Counted from the first letter of the stretch, positions 1-25,854 are shown. The stretch is 64,000 nt of DNA from a bacterium (GCA_965200245.1 CBDATS010000005.1:576001-640000), one strand, 5' to 3'. Notes: generated from the letters alone by a model not told the origin. Numbers and translations are program-made.

Positions 1-1173
1 ATCGCTCTGGAAGCTGGCGACCTTAAGAGCGTGAGCTTTCACGCGGGCATGCCGGGCGAATCGGCACGAATAACGAACGTATTGGACTCCGTCGAGCCCC
101 TCTACAAAGTGAGCGGGTACTCATGTGCCTTTCCAGGATTCATGGGCCCCTCCAAGACCGCGGGCGAAGGCCGCACCCACAAACTCGCTGGGATGTGCGT
201 CATCAGTTCCACGCATTTCCTAGGGCCCATGACGGGCATCATGAGCTTTCGCGAAGGGATTATCGACATGTGCGGCCCTGGCACAATTCATTGTACGAAT
301 TCAGAGACCGCGAATCTCGTCGCCTGCTACGAACCGCTGGAAGGCACCTCGAACGAAGCACACGATGACGCCGTACGTCTTGCAACACTCAAAATAGCCT
401 CCCGGCTGGCCGAACACACGAAGGATATAGAGCCCACGCGGGTCGAGACGTTCGAACTCGCAGATGTCGACCCCGCTCTTCCTCGCGTCGTTTATGTCGA
501 TCAGATCATGCACCAAGCTTCCATGGTGCAGACTTTCATGTACGGCAAGAACTTTGGGGATTCACTCCCCACCCTCATTCATCCGAACGAGATGCTCGAC
601 GGCGCGGTCGTTGGAGCGAATTACAAGACGCAGCAGAAGGCACCGACCTACCTCCATTGCAACAAGCCGCTCATATACGAACTCTACCGCCGCCACGGAG
701 CGGATATCAATTTCACAGGAATGATCATTACACGCGGCCACCACGACAACCAAGCCCTTAAGGAACGCTCGGCGCAATACGTGGCCAAGCTCGCAACGCT
801 CCTAAAGGCCGACGGCGCGGTTCTCGCCTTCGAGGGTGGCGGCAATTCCACGGTGGACTATTGGCTCACCGTCCAAGCACTCGAGCAGATGGGTGTACGT
901 GCTGTGCCTATCATCTACGAGGTGGGCCGGCCAGGCTCGGGCGAATTCCCGCTCGTCTTTCACGTGCCGGAAGCCGACTCTATCATCTCCAAGGGCATGC
1001 AGGGGGAGCGCATCGCCGCCCCGGCAGTGGAGCGTGTCATCGGCTCGGAAATCGTTGATTTCTATAACGGCAGGAGCTACAACGTCCGCGAAGCGTTCAC
1101 CCTGTCAGACAGCGACTACTACGCAAACGAGTGGGCGCGGGACATCAACCACATGATTGGCAAGGCGTATTGA
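1..1173 (+). CDS. Glycine/sarcosine/betaine reductase component B subunit (GrdE/GrdG/GrdI-like), 5'-truncated by the window edge
   Basis: The frame is open from base 1. It carries family-like segments PGESARITNVLDSVEP, EGIIDMCGPG, LPTLIHPNEMLDGAVV, LYRRHGADINFTG, KERSA and EGGGN, and lies directly upstream of a GrdB-like gene. Confidence 0.85.
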   Translation: MALEAGDLKSVSFHAGMPGESARITNVLDSVEPLYKVSGYSCAFPGFMGPSKTAGEGRTHKLAGMCVISSTHFLGPMTGIMSFREGIIDMCGPGTIHCTNSETANLVACYEPLEGTSNEAHDDAVRLATLKIASRLAEHTKDIEPTRVETFELADVDPALPRVVYVDQIMHQASMVQTFMYGKNFGDSLPTLIHPNEMLDGAVVGANYKTQQKAPTYLHCNKPLIYELYRRHGADINFTGMIITRGHHDNQALKERSAQYVAKLATLLKADGAVLAFEGGGNSTVDYWLTVQALEQMGVRAVPIIYEVGRPGSGEFPLVFHVPEADSIISKGMQGERIAAPAVERVIGSEIVDFYNGRSYNVREAFTLSDSDYYANEWARDINHMIGKAY

Positions 1174-1335: not shown

Positions 1336-2652
1336 ATGAGCACTAAATTTCGGGTCGTTCACTATTTGAACCAGTTCTTCGCTGGAGTGGGGGGCGAGGA
1401 TAGGAGCGATCATCCTGCCTCCGTCCTGCCCGGCCCCGTCGGCCCCGGCGTATTACTCGACAAGATATTAAAGGAGGAGGCTGAAGTCGTCGCCACGGTC
1501 TTTGCGGGCGATGGCCATTTTGCCGAAAACGAGGCGTCCTGCGCCACAGCAGCGTTCGCACTCATCAAGGAGCACTCACCCGATCTCCTTATCGCAGGCC
1601 CCGCCTTCAACGCCGGGCGCTACGGGCTCGCCTGCTCCGCCATCTGCCAATCAGCACAAGAGGCGGGCCTTCCCGTCGTCACCGCCATGCACCCGGAGAA
1701 TCCTGGTTTTCCCGCCGCAGGATTCGGTGTTCACACCGTTCCCACCACAGACTCTGCCATCGGCATGGAGGAAGCCCTTGAGGCCGTCGCCCGCCTGGGG
1801 CTCAAGCTCGTCCGGGGTGAGAAGATCGGAAGCGCCGCAGACGAAGGCTATCTCCCGCGCGGTATTCGCTATAACGAAATCGCCGAGTTCCCGGCCTCGC
1901 GACGCGCCGTCGATATGGTCCTGAAGAAAATCCGGGGCGAACCCTACCAGAGCGAACTCGATGTTCCCGTCCTTGAAGAGATAGTGCCTCCAGAACCCGT
2001 TGCCGATCTCAAAAGGGCCCGAATCGCCATCGTATCAGAGGGCGGTATGGTGCCTCCCGACAATCCTGATCGCTTTTCCGGATCGAGAAATGAAAACTGG
2101 GCCACGTATTCCCTGGAAGGAAAAGACGCCCTGCCGGGCGGTGCGTTCATCTCGATACACGGCGGCTTCAACACCGTGTTCGTGAACGAGGAGCCCGACC
2201 GCATGCTCGCCGTCGACGCCTTTCGCAGGCTCGAGAACGAGGGTGAGATCGCAGCGCTCCACGATGATTTCCTGAGTACTTGCGGCAACGGCGGCGCCTT
2301 CACCACCATGGACGGCATCGGCCGAGCCTGGGCCGCAGAATTGAAGAAGGCCGGGGTGGAGGGCGTCGTTCTCCCCGCCACGTGAGGAACCGGCACGCGC
2401 AGCGGGGCTGCGCTGGCGAAAGCTTTGGAAAGAGAGGGCATTCCTACCGTCATTGTCACCTGTCTGCCCGATGTGGCGCGTGACATCGGGGTTAACCGGA
2501 TCGTCAACAACCGCGCCGGGCACTTCCATCATCCTTTTGGCGATCCGTCCCGGACCCCCGAGGCCGAGCGAGAATGGCGCCTGGGCGCGGCTCGCGCGGC
2601 CGTCTCGACGCTTACCAAAACAGTGGACGGCCCCACGGTATTCGAGTACTAG
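1336..2652 (+). CDS. Glycine/betaine/sarcosine/D-proline reductase family selenoprotein B (GrdB-like); TGA 2383-2385 read as selenocysteine (codon 350)
   Basis: N-terminal RVVHYLNQFFAGVGGED, plus IAGPAFNAGRYG and SIHGGF. The in-frame TGA is followed by GTGTRSGAALAKALEREGIPTV...HPFGDP, the normal GrdB C-terminus, to TAG 2650-2652, giving 438 aa. The ORF track splits this into 1324-2385 and 2425-2652. Confidence 0.9.
2386..2413 (+). promoter_or_regulatory. Putative bacterial SECIS element
   Basis: Perfect GC stem gcgcagc(2397-2403)-ggg-gctgcgc(2407-2413) with a G-rich loop, separated from the in-frame TGA by 11 nt. Confidence 0.7.
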
Positions 2653-2805: not shown

Positions 2806-3786
2806 TTATACCGTCACCCCCAGCGCTTTTTTTGCGGCGTCGACGACGTTGGTGACGTTGGGGAGCACGAAGTCCTCAAGACGGGGCTCGAAGGGAATGG
2901 GCGCGTCCAGGGCGGCCACGCGGCCAATGGGGGCGTCGAGATAATCGAAGGCTTCCTCCTGAACGGCTGCTGATATCTCCGAACCCACGCCACTTCTCAG
3001 GTGACCTTCCTCTACGATAATGCAGCGGTTCGTTTTCCGAACCGATTCAGCGAGCGTCCCCGTATCGAGCGGGGCGATCGTCCTGGGGTCGACGACTTCG
3101 GCACTGATGCCTTCCTTTTCGAGTTCATCCGCCGCCGCCAGGCAGTTGTGCACCTGATAGCCCACGCCGATGAGGGTGATGTCACTGCCCTCCCGCTTCA
3201 CGTCGGCCTGGCCGAAAGGGATCAGGTATTCCCATTTGGGCACACGGCCCTTGATCTTGTAGAGCATCTTGTGCTCCACGACGAGCACGGGGTTGCCGTC
3301 GCGGATCGCCGTGCGCATCAGGCCCTTGGCGTCCGCAGGGTCGCTCGGCACTGCCACCCTGATCCCCGGAATCTGCATGAACCAGGCCTCCAGGCACTGG
3401 CTATGCGTGGGGCCGTACTGCACGCCGCCGCCGCCGGGGGTGCGCACGACGAGAGGCACGCTCAACTGCCCGCCCAGCATATAACGCAGCTTGGCTGCCT
3501 GGTTAATGAGTGGGTCCATCGCCAGCATGATGAAGTCCATGAACATGATCTCGACGACGGGCCGGTAGCCCGCCATGGCGGCGCCCACGCCTGCACCCAC
3601 GATCCCGAGTTCACTGATGGGCGTGTCACGTACCCGGTCTTTCCCGAATCTGTCCGCCAGCCCCTTCGTCACACCGAAGACGTAGGCCAGTTCCACATCC
3701 TCGCCCATCACGATGACGCGCTCGTCGCGCTCCATTTCTTCGTGATGGACTTCGTTCAACGCATCCACAAAAGTGATTTCTCGCAT
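2806..3786 (-). CDS. Acetoin/pyruvate/2-oxoacid dehydrogenase E1 beta subunit
   Basis: MREITFVDALNE..., VRDTPISE, HSQCLEAWF, EVVDPRT, DYLDAPI. The start was reassigned to ATG 3786; the upstream part of the 683-aa ORF is a shadow frame over E1 alpha. Confidence 0.92.
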   Translation of the reverse strand: MREITFVDALNEVHHEEMERDERVIVMGEDVELAYVFGVTKGLADRFGKDRVRDTPISELGIVGAGVGAAMAGYRPVVEIMFMDFIMLAMDPLINQAAKLRYMLGGQLSVPLVVRTPGGGGVQYGPTHSQCLEAWFMQIPGIRVAVPSDPADAKGLMRTAIRDGNPVLVVEHKMLYKIKGRVPKWEYLIPFGQADVKREGSDITLIGVGYQVHNCLAAADELEKEGISAEVVDPRTIAPLDTGTLAESVRKTNRCIIVEEGHLRSGVGSEISAAVQEEAFDYLDAPIGRVAALDAPIPFEPRLEDFVLPNVTNVVDAAKKALGVTV

Positions 3787-3839
3787 GTCACCTTTCTCCA
3801 GTTTTTCCTGAATGGCACCGCGCCGGGGGACGGGAGCCA

Positions 3840-4829
3840 TCAGGCGTATACGTCCTCGAGCGCAGATTCGAGCGTGGCTTCCGGACTCTGCTCCGCAAAC
3901 GCGATGGCGTCGTGGAGTTCCCTGTCCACGGCCTTGAGGTGCGCTTTCTTCTGCGCTTCCGTGAGTTTCAGCATATCCGCCGCAATCGTCAGCGGATCGC
4001 GCTTTCTCCATTCGTCCACCTCTTCTTTCGTGCGGTAGGGACCGAACTGGGGATCGCCACGCGAGTGTCCGAAAAAGCGGTAGGTCTTCGCCTCGATGAG
4101 GCTCGGACCTCCTCCCTCGCGCGCCCTTCGCACCGACTCGGCGGTCGCCTCGTAGACGGCCACCACGTCCATGCCGTCCACCGTCACGCCGGGGGCGTTG
4201 TAGCCCTGCGCGCGCACGCTGATGTCCTTCACGGCGGTGGATCGCTCGACGTGATAGCTTACCGCATAGTGGTTGTTCTCGCAGAAGAAGATGACCGGCA
4301 GTTTCCAGATCGCGCACAGGTTCATCGACTCGTGAAAACTGCCCTGGTTCGAGGCGCCGTCGCCGAAGAAGACTACCGCCACGCGCCCCAGGCCTTCCAG
4401 CTGATAGGCGAGACCCATGCCCGTAGCCATCGGCATGTTTGCCCCCACGATGGAGTGCGCGCCGTAGTGGCCCTTCGAGATGTCGGCGATGTGCATGGAA
4501 CCGCCCCGCGCCTTGCAGAGGCCGGTGGACTTGCCGAGAAGCTCGGCCATCATCTCGGGCATCCGGGTACCCTTGGCGATGGAGTGTCCATGGCCCCGGT
4601 GGGTGGTCAGGATGGCGTCGTCCTCGCCCAGCGCCGCGCAGACGCCGACCGAGCACGCCTCCTGCCCGATGCTCACGTGAACCGCCCCCTTCACCTGCCC
4701 CGCCATGAAAAACTCGTCCGTCTTCTCTTCGAAGCGGCGGATGCGCAGCATGTTGCGGTACATCGCGTTCAAGTCTTTTTTCGTCAGCCTTTTCGGCTTC
4801 GTTGACCTTCTTCTCGTCCTGGTGGCCAC
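3840..4829 (-). CDS. TPP-dependent dehydrogenase E1 alpha subunit (acetoin/pyruvate type)
   Basis: GQEA, THRGHGH, GGSMH, TPP motif FGDGASNQG...ENN, YRFFGHS. Confidence 0.93.
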   Translation of the reverse strand: MATRTRRRSTKPKRLTKKDLNAMYRNMLRIRRFEEKTDEFFMAGQVKGAVHVSIGQEACSVGVCAALGEDDAILTTHRGHGHSIAKGTRMPEMMAELLGKSTGLCKARGGSMHIADISKGHYGAHSIVGANMPMATGMGLAYQLEGLGRVAVVFFGDGASNQGSFHESMNLCAIWKLPVIFFCENNHYAVSYHVERSTAVKDISVRAQGYNAPGVTVDGMDVVAVYEATAESVRRAREGGGPSLIEAKTYRFFGHSRGDPQFGPYRTKEEVDEWRKRDPLTIAADMLKLTEAQKKAHLKAVDRELHDAIAFAEQSPEATLESALEDVYA

Positions 4830-4954
4830 GGCCTCCTCCTCCCGGCGACTTCATCACAATGCAGTTGTTGAAATATCACGAAAAAATGATTTCCAGAACT
4901 TCAGGAGTACCACATGGGGCGGTGACGGTCCAATCAGAGCGCGCCGGATGAGGC

Positions 4955-6901: not shown

Positions 6902-7969
6902 TTGAAAAGAAATGGTTTTCACCTTGCGCGAATCGCAGCATTATGTCTGCTGATAGTTGTGTTCGGCTGGACGGCCGCTCTGATTTCGCATGCCCAAAAC
7001 ACGCGCGCGCAGGAAGAATTACCCCCGGAGCCACCTCTTGGCCTCGACGACATACCCGTGCCCGAGAACAACCCCATGACGCAGCCCAAAATCGAACTCG
7101 GAAGATTGCTCTACTTCGAGAAACGCTTCTCCGGCGACGGGAAGGTCTCCTGTGCGACATGCCACATGCCCCGGCGCGGATTCTCGAACGCACGCCAGTA
7201 TGGAATCGGCTTCGACGGCAGGCTCACGCTCAGGAACGTGCCCACCGTCATCAATGCCGCCTATAACGAGTCCCAGTTCTGGGACGGGCGCGCTGGCAGC
7301 CTTGAGGAACAGGCTAAAGGACCGATTCTCCACCCGAGCGAGATGGCCTCTAGCGAGGAGAAAATCGTCCGCACACTTGAGGCAATACCCAAATACCGCC
7401 AAAGGTTCAAAGAGGCGTTTGGGGGCTCCGACATCAATCTCGAACGCGTGGCGCAGGCCATCGCCACATTCGAGCGCACCCTGATCTCGGGAAATTCCCC
7501 TTTCGACCGATGGAAATACGGAGACGACCAATCCGCGCTCCCTTCCCGGGCACTAAAGGGTTTCGAGGTCTTCAAAACCAGGGGCAAGTGCGTGAAATGC
7601 CATCTCGTCGATGAATTCAGTGCGCCCTTCACGGACAATAAGTTCCACAATCTAGGCGTAGGTATGGACAAGAAGACCCTGGAGATCGGACGAGAGAGGA
7701 TCACCCAAAAAATCAGGGATCGGGGGAAATTCAAAACACCCACGCTTCGACACATCACACAGACGGCGCCCTACATGCATGACGGCCGCTTCGCCACACT
7801 GGAAGAGGTGGTCGATTTCTATGACAAGGGAGGCCACCCGAACCCCAATCTCGACCCGGACATTAAACCTCTCAATCTCACAAAGACCGAGAAAGAGAAC
7901 CTTATTGCTTTCATGGGCACGCTCACGGGTGACCTCCCCGAAGTCAAGGTACCCGAGTTGCCGAAGTAA
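6902..7969 (+). CDS. Periplasmic di-heme cytochrome c peroxidase / MauG-like protein
   Basis: Signal peptide, CATCH and CVKCH heme motifs, QFWDGRA, FERTL, FKTPTLR, PYMHDG. Confidence 0.92.
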   Translation: MKRNGFHLARIAALCLLIVVFGWTAALISHAQNTRAQEELPPEPPLGLDDIPVPENNPMTQPKIELGRLLYFEKRFSGDGKVSCATCHMPRRGFSNARQYGIGFDGRLTLRNVPTVINAAYNESQFWDGRAGSLEEQAKGPILHPSEMASSEEKIVRTLEAIPKYRQRFKEAFGGSDINLERVAQAIATFERTLISGNSPFDRWKYGDDQSALPSRALKGFEVFKTRGKCVKCHLVDEFSAPFTDNKFHNLGVGMDKKTLEIGRERITQKIRDRGKFKTPTLRHITQTAPYMHDGRFATLEEVVDFYDKGGHPNPNLDPDIKPLNLTKTEKENLIAFMGTLTGDLPEVKVPELPK

Positions 7970-8043
7970 GGCTTTTTCGGCAAACTTATTTTCGCAACCA
8001 CCCGAGACGATTGGAGAGTTCAAGGACCTCCCGCATGACACAC

Positions 8044-8754
8044 ATGAAAAAACCATTCTCCCTCGCGCTTGCAGGAGTTTTATCTTTCCTCCTCACGCCC
8101 CCTACCTTATATGCAGCGGATGTGGACGACGGGAAATCCATTTTCCAAAACAAAAACTGCGGAAGTTGCCATACCTTGAAAGGCCCTGAAACCAGGATAC
8201 CCCCACCTTCGCGTCACGGCATAAAGGGTCCCACGCTCTGGTATGCGGGCAGCAAATTCCAACCTGGTTTTCTGGTGAAATGGCTCGCAAAACCGGAGCC
8301 TTTTCGGGGCGTCATCTACGAAACCATGAAGCGGGGCAAATACTCGCACCCCGTCCTCCCAAAGGAAGAGGCACCGGAGGTAGCAGCATATCTCGAAAGC
8401 CTGAAAGATCCCGAAATGCCCGTAGGTGTCGTTGTGCGCTGGAAGAAAATCCCAAGAAAGGTACTCCGGCGTGCGAGGATTTTGTTTCAGAAAAAACAAC
8501 CCTGCTATTCATGCCATATGGTCTCGATACGTAAAACGGTCTACCGGACGCGCATCAAGGTGGGCGGCCACAGCGCACCCAATTTCATAGAGGCGGGCCA
8601 CAGGCTGAACCCCGATTACATCGTGGCCTTTCTGAAAAAACCGGAACGCTACAACCCCAACGGCAGAATGCCCGTATATGGAGACAAGGCGTTCACGAAA
8701 CTGAGCGAAAAGGATTTCATCGCGCTCGCCGCCTATATTGCGAGCTTCAAGTGA
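8044..8754 (+). CDS. Periplasmic di-heme cytochrome c (NcgB-like)
   Basis: Signal peptide; CGSCH and CYSCH; KGPTLWYAGSKF...WL; RLNPDYI...MP. The stop codon overlaps the next start (GTGA). Confidence 0.85.
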   Translation: MKKPFSLALAGVLSFLLTPPTLYAADVDDGKSIFQNKNCGSCHTLKGPETRIPPPSRHGIKGPTLWYAGSKFQPGFLVKWLAKPEPFRGVIYETMKRGKYSHPVLPKEEAPEVAAYLESLKDPEMPVGVVVRWKKIPRKVLRRARILFQKKQPCYSCHMVSIRKTVYRTRIKVGGHSAPNFIEAGHRLNPDYIVAFLKKPERYNPNGRMPVYGDKAFTKLSEKDFIALAAYIASFK

Positions 8755-22507: not shown

Positions 22508-23656
22508 TCAGTCAACCTGCCTGCGCAGGAAGGTAGGCACGTCCAGATCGTCATCCTCCAGATTGTCCGTAACTCCGGATGAAGCCCCATTGTTCTTCAT
22601 CCGGATATACGCGGGAACCGAGATTTTTCCGCCCACGGTGCCCGTGGCTTCCGATTCCAGCGGTGGCACTTCACGAATCGATTCCCGCCCGAATCCCGTC
22701 GCAATGACGGTCACGCGAATCTGGTTGTCCAGGTTCGCGTCAATCACCGAACCGAATATGATGTTGGCCTCTTGGTGCGCTTTTTCATGGACGAGTTCGC
22801 ACGCCTCGTTCACTTCATAGAGCGAAAGATCCGCACCGCCACTAATGTTTATGAGCACGCCCCGGGAACCCTCGATAGTCCCCTCCTCAAGCAGCGGGCT
22901 GTTGATGGCGTTTTGCGCGGCAATGACGGCGCGATTTTCTCCCTGACCTGTACCGCTCCCCATGAGTGCCTTGCCACCCATATCGCGCATGATGGTGCGT
23001 ACATCGGCGAAATCAAGATTAATGAGGCCGGGGGTTGTTATGAGGTCAGCGATTCCCTTGCACGCATGCAACAATACGTTGTTCGCCTTCTCGAAGGCTT
23101 CAGTCATCGGCGTAGACCGCTCGACCATGCCCAGGAGACGCTGGTTAGGGATAGTGATGAGCGTGTTTACAGCATCGCGCAATTCCTCGATCCCCTCCTC
23201 TGCCTGTTTCATCCGTCGCGGCCCTTCGAATCCAAACGGTTTGGTGACGACGCCTACCGTCAGCACGCCCGCTTCTTTCGCGATGCGTGCGATGACGGGC
23301 GCGGCACCCGTGCCCGTGCCGCCACCCATGCCTGCGGTAACGAACACCATCTCGAGGTTTTGCATGAATTCCAAGAGAACTTCTGTATCCTCCAGGGCTG
23401 CCTTCCTGCCGACTTCGGGGTTACCGCCAGCTCCCAATCCGCCCGTCAACTCATGGCCGATCTGAATTTTCTCGGTCGCGATAGAACGCTCCAGTACCTG
23501 GGCGTCCGTGTTGGCAGCTACGAACTGAACACCCTCCATACCCGCCGCGATCATGGTATTGACAGCGTTGCCGCCGCCTCCTCCTACGCCGACTACCGCG
23601 ATTCTCGCGCTGCACGGCGCCTCCTGTTCCAGTGTGAAAAATGTTGAATCACTCAT
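22508..23656 (-). CDS. ftsZ: Cell division protein FtsZ
   Basis: [25 protein letters not shown]-terminal DLDVPTFLR. Confidence 0.98.
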
Positions 23657-23701
23657 TGTCCCCCCTTCGATCCTGGAAAGCGCCACCGCCTTCCCTTACA
23701 A

Positions 23702-24943
23702 TCATTTGAAAACGCTGGCCAAAACATGGCGGATTTTTTGTGTCGTTTGGCGAATTGGGCCATGCGCCGCCCCGTTCGTTAGTCCACGGCGCCTCGGGAT
23801 GCCAGATTTCATGGCGTAAATCACAAGGCCCACGGCGGTGGAGTACATCGGTCCATTGACCATATCCACCAGCCCACTAATGCCGCCGGGAACGCCCAGC
23901 CTCACCGGAAGCTGCAGCACGTTTTCGGCGAGTTCATCGGAACCCTCGATAATGCTCGCCCCTCCCGTGAGCACGACGCCTGCAGGTAATAGATCCTCCA
24001 TACCGCTTTTCTGTATCTCGCGGCGGATAAGTGTCAGTATCTCTTCCATACGGGGTTCAATAATTTCTGCGAGCATCTGCCGGCTCAGTAGACGCGGCTG
24101 GCGTCCGCCCACACTGGGTACCTCGATCTCCTCATCGTTCGATATCCGGGTTGCCAAGGCACAACCATGTTCCTGCTTGATTTGCTCAGCCTGGTAATCC
24201 GGCGTCCTAAGCCCTATCGCCATGTCCCTCGTGATATGGCTGCCACCCACGGGGACGACGGCCGAATAGCGCAGCGCTCCCCCGCTAACGACGGCGACAT
24301 CCGATGTGCCACTTCCGATATCCACTATTGCTACGCCCAGATCTCGCTCATCATCGCTCAGAGCCGCCAGCGAGGAAGCGAAAGGCTGAAGCACCAGTCG
24401 TTCTACAACCAAGCCTGCCCGCTTAACGCTATGAGTAATGTTCTGAATCGCGGGGATGGACCCCGTCACCACGTGGACCTTGCATTCCAGGCGAACGCCA
24501 GCCATACCCGCAGGCTCAGTGACACCCTCCTGATCGTCCACGATGTATTCTTGCGGCAGCACGTGGATGATTTCGTGATCTGCCGGCATCGTGACGGCGC
24601 GCGCTTGCTCGACAACACGATCGATATCCTCTTGCGTCACAATCTTGTTCTTGATGGCTACGATACCATTGGTGTTGAAGCTACGGATGTGGCCACCAGC
24701 CACGCCCACGTATGCGGAGCGAATGGGCGAACCGCTGATGAATTCCGCTTCACTCACCGCCGTTTGGACTGACTCCACCGTCTGGTCGATGTTCACCACA
24801 AAGCCCCGGTTGAGTCCTTTCGAGGCGGTTTTACCCAGCCCCACGATTTCCAAGGATCCGTCCTCGTTCACCTCGGCCACGACCACACAGATTTTCGATG
24901 TGCCGATGTCCAAACCCACCAGCACGTCGTTCTGTTTGCTCAT
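23702..24943 (-). CDS. ftsA: Cell division protein FtsA
   Basis: GLDIGTSK, DIGSGT, VLTGG; start reassigned to ATG 24943. Confidence 0.97.
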   Translation of the reverse strand: MSKQNDVLVGLDIGTSKICVVVAEVNEDGSLEIVGLGKTASKGLNRGFVVNIDQTVESVQTAVSEAEFISGSPIRSAYVGVAGGHIRSFNTNGIVAIKNKIVTQEDIDRVVEQARAVTMPADHEIIHVLPQEYIVDDQEGVTEPAGMAGVRLECKVHVVTGSIPAIQNITHSVKRAGLVVERLVLQPFASSLAALSDDERDLGVAIVDIGSGTSDVAVVSGGALRYSAVVPVGGSHITRDMAIGLRTPDYQAEQIKQEHGCALATRISNDEEIEVPSVGGRQPRLLSRQMLAEIIEPRMEEILTLIRREIQKSGMEDLLPAGVVLTGGASIIEGSDELAENVLQLPVRLGVPGGISGLVDMVNGPMYSTAVGLVIYAMKSGIPRRRGLTNGAAHGPIRQTTQKIRHVLASVFK

Positions 24944-25854
24944 CCTTTCTTCCCTCCATCCTTTGTGAGTGGCCGAACGATAACCCTGTCGGGAAATCTC
25001 AAATCGAACTGCAGGCCGCCCGCTCCGAGTTCTTTCTGCCGGAGAACATCGTCCGCAACGGCCCGAAGCCGTCCGGCCTGGCTCTCCATTTTCTCTGCAC
25101 TGACCATAAGTTCCACCTTGCTCTCCGGGGCGCGAAGCCGCAGCTGATCCGGGCTGGAATTTCGGACGGCAATGCACTCGCCTCGTATTACCGGAGAATC
25201 CTGGAATAAATGGGCTGCCTCTATGGAGCGAGCCAGCCGCGGGTCGCGAATAACATCTCCTGGCCGCCAGCGACGCGAAGCGAATCCCTCAACCACGGGC
25301 AAGCATCCGGCGACTGACGCCAAAGATTTGCCAAGCACGACGCCCTCCTCATCCACCATGAGGGTTTCACCACCCATGATGTACGCGACGGGCTTGCGTT
25401 CGATGATGTTGACTTCGAGGAAATGGGGCGGACGCATGCGCACGCTCGCCCGTTTTATCCACAGATGGGCGGCCACGCGCGCGCGTATGGCCGCCAAATC
25501 GGCGTCGAATAAGTTCATACCCGGCTCGACACTCATGAGTTTCACGATTTCCTCGGTGCGAAGCGCCCGCTGTCCCTTCACCTCCACCTTACTCAGTTCG
25601 AAATGGCGACTGCTTTTCGCCCATTGGACCGCATGTCCACCCAAAAGAAGCACCTCCACGAAAACCAAAATCCCGATCGCGGGCCATAGCCAGTTTCCGC
25701 CTGTCCTCTCCTTACGCTGTAGTCTGACGCTTTTAGGGGCATTCGGTTCGATGTCTACCTCACGGAGCCCGTGATGTTCGGCCACTTGTGCTAGATTCAG
25801 GACGACTTCCCGGCTTCCGTCTTTCCCTCCCCATCTGAATGATAAACGCCTCAC
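24940..25854 (-). CDS. ftsQ: Cell division protein FtsQ/DivIB
   Basis: Single TM helix, POTRA-like region, IERKP, DLRFPDRVIVR; position between murB and ftsA. Confidence 0.88.
   Translation of the reverse strand: MRRLSFRWGGKDGSREVVLNLAQVAEHHGLREVDIEPNAPKSVRLQRKERTGGNWLWPAIGILVFVEVLLLGGHAVQWAKSSRHFELSKVEVKGQRALRTEEIVKLMSVEPGMNLFDADLAAIRARVAAHLWIKRASVRMRPPHFLEVNIIERKPVAYIMGGETLMVDEEGVVLGKSLASVAGCLPVVEGFASRRWRPGDVIRDPRLARSIEAAHLFQDSPVIRGECIAVRNSSPDQLRLRAPESKVELMVSAEKMESQAGRLRAVADDVLRQKELGAGGLQFDLRFPDRVIVRPLTKDGGKKG

Follow-up and report, generated by a model that had tools for sequence, protein, structure and literature searches.

Can the selenocysteine (Sec) subunit of a glycine reductase-type enzyme function without the two cysteine residues that normally follow Sec? 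The question is raised by a grdB-like gene in a 64,000-nucleotide stretch of bacterial DNA (GCA_965200245.1 CBDATS010000005.1:576001-640000), called the window below. The gene lies at positions 1336..2652 on the + strand and encodes 438 amino acids, read through one UGA. This single in-frame TGA (2383..2385, +) was translated as Sec (U350). Positions 2371-2412 gave L-P-A-T-U-G-T-G-T-R-S-G-A-A; the active-site motif U-G-T-G-T-R-S-G-A occupies 2383..2409 (+), with G353 encoded at 2392-2394 and S356 at 2401-2403. In contrast, S-T-U-G-T-C-T-R-C-G-A stands in the annotated records of both GrdF (Peptoclostridium acidaminophilum) and GrdH (Enterococcus gilvus). A passage of PMC6778437, citing Wagner et al. 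1999, gives UxxCxxC as the rule for GrdB, GrdF and GrdH. In the protein studied here the Cys residues at +3 and +6 after Sec are absent, and Sec and the hairpin of the selenocysteine insertion sequence (SECIS) are retained. The codons GGC (G353) and AGC (S356) are each a single base away from the Cys codon TGC. An earlier note on this DNA had read the motif as PAT-U-GTGTRSGA and that of canonical B subunits as STUGTCTRCGA; retranslation and the two annotated records confirmed both. From the double replacement it had inferred a mechanistically distinct subfamily in which Sec acts without the vicinal dithiol, possibly with a new substrate or a different reductive partner. We found an intact gene that is subject to purifying selection and whose UGA is read through. 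Judged from its sequences, the motif U-G-[T/S]-G-T-R-S-G-A marks a deep, widespread and nearly monophyletic clade, which we call Gly/Ser-type.

The GrdB-like protein belongs to the selenoprotein B superfamily. It scored 397.5 bits against PF07355 (Pfam GRDB; cut-off 22) and, over residues 6-437, 417.8 bits against TIGR01918 (NCBIfam various_sel_PB; cut-off 65.45). It missed the models of the individual B subunits, namely the GrdB equivalog TIGR01917 (387.6 versus a cut-off of 602.2), GrdF NF040794 (415.8 versus 800), GrdH NF040795 (353.9 versus 775) and the PrdB equivalog TIGR04483 (84.3 versus 300). GrdF was the best-scoring curated B-subunit model. None of the curated cut-offs for the B subunits of glycine, sarcosine or betaine reductase was reached, which makes the earlier suggestion of a new substrate plausible. 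No sequence relative of the protein was found among solved structures, and Foldseek returned only generic two-Rossmann matches resembling periplasmic binding proteins (template-modelling score about 0.2). A separate peculiarity was noted at positions 1504-1506 (+): Cys57 (C-G-D), which is nearly invariant in GrdB proteins and retained in other members of the same clade, is Ala (V-F-A-G-D-G) only in this genus.

The motif was strictly conserved among close relatives. T-U-G-T-G-T-R-S-G-A was identical in 46 of 46 locus rows, which span 58-100% protein identity and 26 distinct DNA versions, an agreement well outside what chance would give; one further related locus ended with its contig after U-G-T-G. 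Exactly one TGA was present at the same place in all 35 matches, which came from 25 of 41 related genomes. The ratio of nonsynonymous to synonymous substitution rates (dN/dS), calculated against seven orthologues, was 0.11-0.22 before the UGA and 0.05-0.11 after it, indicating that the 88 codons downstream of the UGA are translated. According to a tally of identities and motif reads, 30 of the phylum's 51 genomes carry this clade of close relatives; these 30 all belong to one family of 42 genomes, and the clade was found in none of the nine genomes outside that family. Contigs from public sponge-metagenome runs showed 0 differences across the operon, and some of these DNA runs may be the source of the assembly. 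Contigs from two RNA libraries also showed 0 differences over pieces of all four grd genes. One of them crosses the UGA, and together they are a weak hint of expression. The main text of a sponge metaproteome paper (PMC6081418) contained none of the terms glycine, betaine, sarcosine, selen*, Nitrospin* and haloac*.

The elements for Sec insertion were in place. A SECIS-like hairpin, GCGCAGC-GGG-GCUGCGC, with a 7-bp stem, lies at 2397..2413 (+) over the codons of R355, S356, G357, A358, A359 and L360. It was seen in the single-sequence fold and in the RNAalifold consensus of 26 distinct clade sequences, where two pairs were changed on both sides: G-C to A-U in L053, L079 and L085, and C-G to U-A in L054 and L055. 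With this covarying stem and a TGA in all 35 matches, the observation that Sec and its hairpin were kept despite the double Cys replacement was borne out. The +6 codon is within the 5' arm of the stem. Where it is AGC (Ser) instead of TGC (Cys), the 3' arm, two to three residues downstream, shows the corresponding change from canonical G-S-A to G-A-A. Because this codon change is compensated, the protein motif and the RNA hairpin constrain each other. The genes for tRNA-Sec, SelA, SelB and SelD were all found in the genome. The selD gene (C8:72779-73741, -; within L097, G000:C8:71279-75241) contains one in-frame TGA, so SelD is probably a selenoprotein as well.

Whether UGTGTRS marks a conserved clade was examined with two trees. 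The first was a quick maximum-likelihood tree of 52 rows, from which the motif columns had been taken out. All 18 Gly/Ser rows formed one clade, with a Shimodaira-Hasegawa-like approximate likelihood ratio (SH-aLRT) of 96. Four rows of a paralogue with Ser at both positions (Ser/Ser) formed their own clade (SH-aLRT 100). Both clades were nested in a supported group (97) of non-clostridial proteins that includes 12 canonical rows; GrdF and 14 clostridial-type proteins fell outside this group. An approximately unbiased (AU) test did not reject joining Gly/Ser and Ser/Ser in one clade (p 0.563). The cysteine loss of the Ser/Ser paralogue may be independent of that in the Gly/Ser type or shared with it. 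In the second tree, made with FastTree from 128 distinct sequences, a single 72-row clade took in 69 of the 71 Gly/Ser rows; its other three rows read U/C-G-T-G-T-R-C. Fifty metagenome rows of this tree had been selected by the motif itself, so it shows clustering and not frequency. These trees indicated that the Gly/Ser type is a nearly monophyletic subfamily.

The motif was not confined to one phylum. In a second phylum, relatives were present in 32 of 121 genomes; their 32 rows, two of them the same gene, carried CC (16), GC (7), GS (4), SC (3) and CG (2) at the two positions. Protein-database relatives mostly end at Sec (349 amino acids), so motifs were read from DNA. Metagenome contigs were scanned with a degenerate DNA pattern for the motif, which gave at least 122 stretches. 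Among the matches listed, 120 of 122 encode GrdB relatives with the motif, at 36-92% identity (median 45%). When the C-terminal 139 residues were searched against 1.84 billion representatives, 108 matches were obtained, mostly short fragments or PrdB-like proteins. One of these, P0123 (273 amino acids), reads T-A-T-T-G-T-G-T-R-S-G-A-A, with Thr in place of Sec and the rest of the Gly/Ser motif intact. A literature search found no paper describing the Gly/Ser-type subfamily and no paper pairing "Nitrospin*" with "glycine reductase".

Two paralogues were found in genomes of the same family. One, with U-G-S-G-T-R-S, is 48% identical, occurs in three genomes and has its own grdA and grdC, followed by genes for a TctCBA transporter. 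At L065:5843-13691 (+), TctC, TctB and TctA are encoded downstream, and an IclR-type regulator and an ABC transporter upstream. The TctCBA genes suggest an imported carboxylate for this paralogue. The other is the Ser/Ser paralogue (U-G-T-S-T-R-S), which is 40% identical and occurs in five genomes. It is preceded by a DUF255 thioredoxin-like gene (PF03190, about 500 amino acids) in four of four loci with enough flank, at L087:11455-12969 (-), L090:9770-11284 (-), L088:6857-8362 (-) and L089:33-1463 (+). Neither grdA nor grdC was found near the Ser/Ser paralogue at those loci.

The gene before grdB-like encodes the GrdE-like non-selenoprotein subunit of protein B. Its 3' part occupies 1..1173 (+) of the window; the full gene (G000:C5:575890-577173, 427 amino acids) begins 111 bases before the window. 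The full protein scored 351 bits against Pfam PF09338. Against NCBIfam models it scored 253.7 for GrdG (cut-off 780) and 131 for FarE (NF053623; cut-off 675). In protein B of glycine and sarcosine reductases, the partner subunit (GrdE or GrdG) is a proprotein that cleaves itself at Asn-Cys, which yields the pyruvoyl group. In the part of PMC9908766 dealing with Clostridioides difficile GrdE, the pyruvoyl group is placed at the N-terminus of the peptide aa242-266. The GrdE-like protein reads N244-Y245-K246-T247 here (619..630, +), and its Asn-Tyr (619-624) aligned with Asn241-Cys242 of P. acidaminophilum GrdG. GNYK[T/S] recurred beside Gly/Ser-type GrdB in two phyla; in canonical relatives from the same phylum as this genome, the site reads G-F-[C/S]. 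With Asn-Tyr in place of Asn-Cys, the partner is probably without the pyruvoyl carbonyl of glycine and sarcosine reductases, and therefore the enzyme probably has no carbonyl group for binding an amine as a Schiff base.

In the window and the 15 kb upstream on the same contig, the gene order was grdC, grdA, grdE-like and grdB-like. Both GrdA and GrdC have canonical sequences. The grdA gene contains an in-frame TGA; its product scored 198.4 against NF040748 (cut-off 130) and carries E-C-F-V-U-T, the same CxxU motif as GrdA of P. acidaminophilum and E. gilvus. With CFVU intact in the GrdA of the operon, nothing indicates a different reductive partner. GrdC scored 576 bits against NF040746 (cut-off 450), and its KAS-like Cys254 is conserved. 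GrdD, the other subunit of protein C, was not found: NF040747 had no match at E≤1e-10 in any of the 51 genomes of the phylum, and GrdC was present in 35 of them. The only weak GrdD match in this genome (G000) was PlsX, which adjoins FabH and is its sole PlsX-family gene. G000 is 95.8% complete, and among the searched genomes of the same genus four are single contigs. Same-phylum relatives with canonical U-G-T-C-T-R-C also lacked GrdD, so the GrdD-less state is wider than the cysteine-less state. No thioredoxin or thioredoxin reductase gene was found within 15 kb upstream or in the window; one TrxB above cut-off, a housekeeping thioredoxin reductase, is encoded elsewhere in the genome. The host also encodes a haem-copper oxidase. 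The four-gene order recurred in other genera with different flanking genes, so the neighbourhood confirmed a conserved grd unit and yielded no conserved clue to the substrate. The lost Asn-Cys site of the partner and the absence of GrdD are stronger anomalies than the motif itself, and the earlier note had missed both.

The double loss has a precedent. PMC10838667 describes FarB/FarE, the fluoroacetate reductase of Cloacibacillus porcorum, as a pair in which FarB lacks CxxC and FarE, without processing cysteines, is no proprotein; the GrdA/GrdC system that the pair supplies is shared. The proteins here likewise combine a Sec subunit without CxxC and a partner without processing Cys. FarB/FarE is thus a precedent for the motif change, and the one known case of the combined loss concerns a substrate unable to form a Schiff base. 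Unlike FarB/FarE, the system here scores far under the FarE cut-off, has no farA or farC neighbours and belongs to a different host lineage and habitat. A figure legend of PMC10838667 shows GrdD in Synergistota, in contrast to its absence here. Betaine reductase GrdH/GrdI is similar in having a Sec subunit, an unprocessed partner (GrdI) and the same GrdA and GrdC, with no Schiff base needed. It differs in that GrdH keeps U-G-T-C-T-R-C, and its model was missed here (353.9 versus 775). The annotated betaine reductase locus of E. gilvus is ordered trxB-trx-grdA-grdC-grdD-grdI-grdH-BCCT, whereas the operon here has no grdD, trxB/trx or BCCT carrier.

GrdF/GrdG and GrdB/GrdE of P. acidaminophilum and Clostridium sticklandii gave the best-scoring models and share the length, domain order and Sec position of the proteins here. 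They differ from them in the UxxCxxC motif, in Asn-Cys versus Asn-Tyr, in scores that reach about half of the cut-offs here, and in clade. D-proline reductase PrdB is another member of the superfamily, and its Sec stands where the corresponding helix begins. Unlike the GrdB-like protein, PrdB has about 240 amino acids, matches only the C-terminal domain and has PrdA as partner; TIGR04483 gave 84 versus a cut-off of 300 here. A named family can already do without the second Cys, as shown by an annotated PrdB of Terrisporobacter with U-G-T-C-H-R-S. Together with the wide variation of the motif in non-clostridial relatives (CC, GC, SC, CG, GS and SS), these comparisons do not bear out a mechanistically distinct chemistry: passages of PMC10838667 and PMC6778437 treat CxxC as protection of Sec against oxidation and not as a catalytic group, FarB already lacks it, and PrdB has UxxCxxS.

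We therefore favour, with moderate confidence, a reading in which the GrdB-like protein serves as the working Sec subunit of a substrate-specific protein B; the complete enzyme would be a Grd-type reductase that has two selenoproteins, lacks GrdD and uses no Schiff base. Without a pyruvoyl group, there would be no Schiff-base activation of a primary or secondary amine, and the enzyme would act like betaine or fluoroacetate reductase. The U350 selenolate, at the N-terminus of a helix, would attack an X-CH2-COO- compound at C-alpha, where X already leaves readily. Betaines with a quaternary ammonium or sulfonium group and halide compounds are the candidate substrates. The carboxymethyl group would then be handed to the Sec of GrdA. 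GrdC would receive the acetyl thioester, which would be released as acetate or acetyl-CoA and not as acetyl phosphate, and GrdA would be re-reduced by thioredoxin. In such a scheme, Sec would be the sole nucleophile; the two cysteines of UxxCxxC would be an accessory guard of Sec outside the core chemistry, dispensed with in the Gly/Ser branch.

Several points weigh against this reading. The route proposed for the acetyl group in the absence of GrdD is purely inferential. The missing pyruvoyl site alone cannot account for the missing cysteines, because GrdH keeps UxxCxxC though GrdI is unprocessed. No substrate clue is conserved beside the Gly/Ser clade, as the flanks vary between genera. By model score, the GrdE-like protein fits GrdG (253.7 bits) better than FarE (131 bits). 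There is a small chance that the conserved Thr/Ser two residues after Tyr (NYK[T/S]) serves as an alternative nucleophile for self-cleavage. The RNA-library contigs may derive from DNA, and their comparison had no silent control stretch. The metagenome rows of the larger tree were picked by the motif.

The first alternative is an ordinary betaine- or sarcosine-type reductase acting on a known substrate such as glycine betaine, with Gly/Ser as neutral or lineage drift of a non-essential motif. GrdF and GrdG were the best model matches, GrdA and GrdC are canonical, and GrdI of betaine reductase is also unprocessed according to the description in PMC10838667. The motif varied freely in the non-clostridial relatives of the second phylum, where half of the 32 rows were not CC, and the runs containing this DNA are labelled sponge metagenomes. 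However, the scores were about half of every curated cut-off, the annotated GrdH retains both cysteines, and no BCCT/OpuD carrier adjoins the genes, unlike in the E. gilvus and P. acidaminophilum loci. The Gly/Ser type also formed a separate deep clade and was not scattered as drift would be. We consider this explanation unlikely.

The second alternative is a rewired thiol relay, in which the Cys partner of Sec has moved within the B component or to a thioredoxin-like protein and a selenenylsulfide is still formed. The candidates within the B component are Cys316 and Cys376 of the GrdB-like protein and Cys135 and Cys257 of the GrdE-like protein. An AlphaFold 2 model of the GrdB-like protein was built from 49 aligned relatives (mean predicted local distance difference test score 90.9) and read as secondary-structure topology. 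In the model, U350 is the last residue before helix 351-366 and follows strand 343-347; G353 and S356 are located in the first two turns of this helix. Cys316 (STCGNG; 2281..2283, +) is just after strand 307-314, in the beta-alpha unit preceding that of U350. Cys376 (VTC; 2461..2463, +) is at the end of strand 371-375. Because each is just after one of three consecutive parallel strands, Cys316, U350 and Cys376 are predicted to be likely neighbours. The two closest Gly/Ser clades have all four cysteines without exception, canonical relatives have none of them, and the DUF255 thioredoxin-like gene stands directly upstream of the Ser/Ser paralogue in all four loci.

These features did not extend to the whole subfamily. 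Among the matches listed, position 316 was mostly Thr or Val in the 120 metagenome Gly/Ser proteins (Cys in about 31), and position 376 was Ser or Ala in many, with TC in about 76. GrdE-like Cys135 and Cys257 were likewise clade-specific, and Cys257 is Thr in the second phylum. The four cysteines are shared by descent in one clade and so are not independent evidence, and the Cys-Sec proximity is predicted from topology. A general relocation of the thiol is therefore not supported. The idea of another Cys near Sec, raised earlier for STCGNG and IVTC, is therefore topologically plausible but holds for only part of the subfamily, and the rewired relay is quite unlikely.

The third alternative, that the enzyme is a Far-like reductive dehalogenase of haloacetate removing halide as proposed for FarB/FarE, is very unlikely. 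It shares the paired loss of CxxC and processing cysteines, and FarE was the second-best NCBIfam match of the partner. However, that match reached 131 against a cut-off of 675, neither farA (an MFS antiporter) nor farC (a radical SAM protein) was found in the operon or its flanks, and the clade grouped with non-clostridial Grd proteins, in a tree without any FarB sequence. Finally, a decaying gene or an assembly or sequencing error in the motif might be suspected, as a passage of PMC6778437 calls a GrdB homologue without the motif "likely a pseudogene" and the genome is a metagenome-assembled genome with 8% estimated contamination, but the identical motif in 46 of 46 locus rows from many assemblies, the dN/dS of 0.05-0.22, the covarying SECIS hairpin and the run contigs with 0 differences refute it.

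Other genes were observed around the operon and elsewhere in the genome. Directly downstream, at 2806-4857 (-), is a gene for 683 amino acids with transketolase-type pyrimidine-binding and C-terminal domains (E1 beta-like) at residues 360-671; for its first 350 residues, Pfam gave nothing at E≤1e-4. Pieces resembling E1 alpha and E1 beta were also present near a canonical grd cluster of a distant relative (L066:14623-16015). Near the grd genes are also those for a di-haem cytochrome c peroxidase (6902-7969) and for c-type cytochromes (8011-8754), and ftsZ and ftsA lie at 22508-25177 (-). Three further loci of G000, L002 (C8:244993-245391), L003 (C4:784599-785138) and L004 (C4:1532214-1532600), have open frames of 184-194 amino acids with no internal stop. 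They match only the C-terminal part of the GRDB profile, as PrdB-like or "GrdB-like without Se" proteins.

A broader reading is possible, and we offer it tentatively. A distinct selenoenzyme system, widespread among bacteria of soil, sea and sponges that respire oxygen, may consist solely of GrdA, GrdC, Gly/Ser-type GrdB and the unprocessed GNYK[T/S] subunit that goes with this GrdB. It would reductively cleave a compound other than glycine, sarcosine, betaine, proline and fluoroacetate; possible examples are a natural haloacetate, a betaine of the sulfonium or arsonium kind and another quaternary osmolyte. The product would be acetate or acetyl-CoA in place of acetyl phosphate. If true, this would be Grd chemistry outside Stickland fermentation, with Sec working without a neighbouring thiol. 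Until now, the roles known for the enzyme family are limited to the anaerobic fermentation of amino acids and a single dehalogenation. The Gly/Ser branch departs from the textbook enzyme in three ways, having no CxxC, no Asn-Cys pyruvoyl site and no GrdD. It also occurs in carriers of haem-copper oxidase. Together these features point to an unrecognised substrate and route of product release. Because a large, selected, Sec-retaining branch lacks both cysteines, UxxCxxC is unsafe as a test for functional GrdB outside clostridia. The branch is a natural experiment on the role of the cysteines beside a catalytic selenocysteine.

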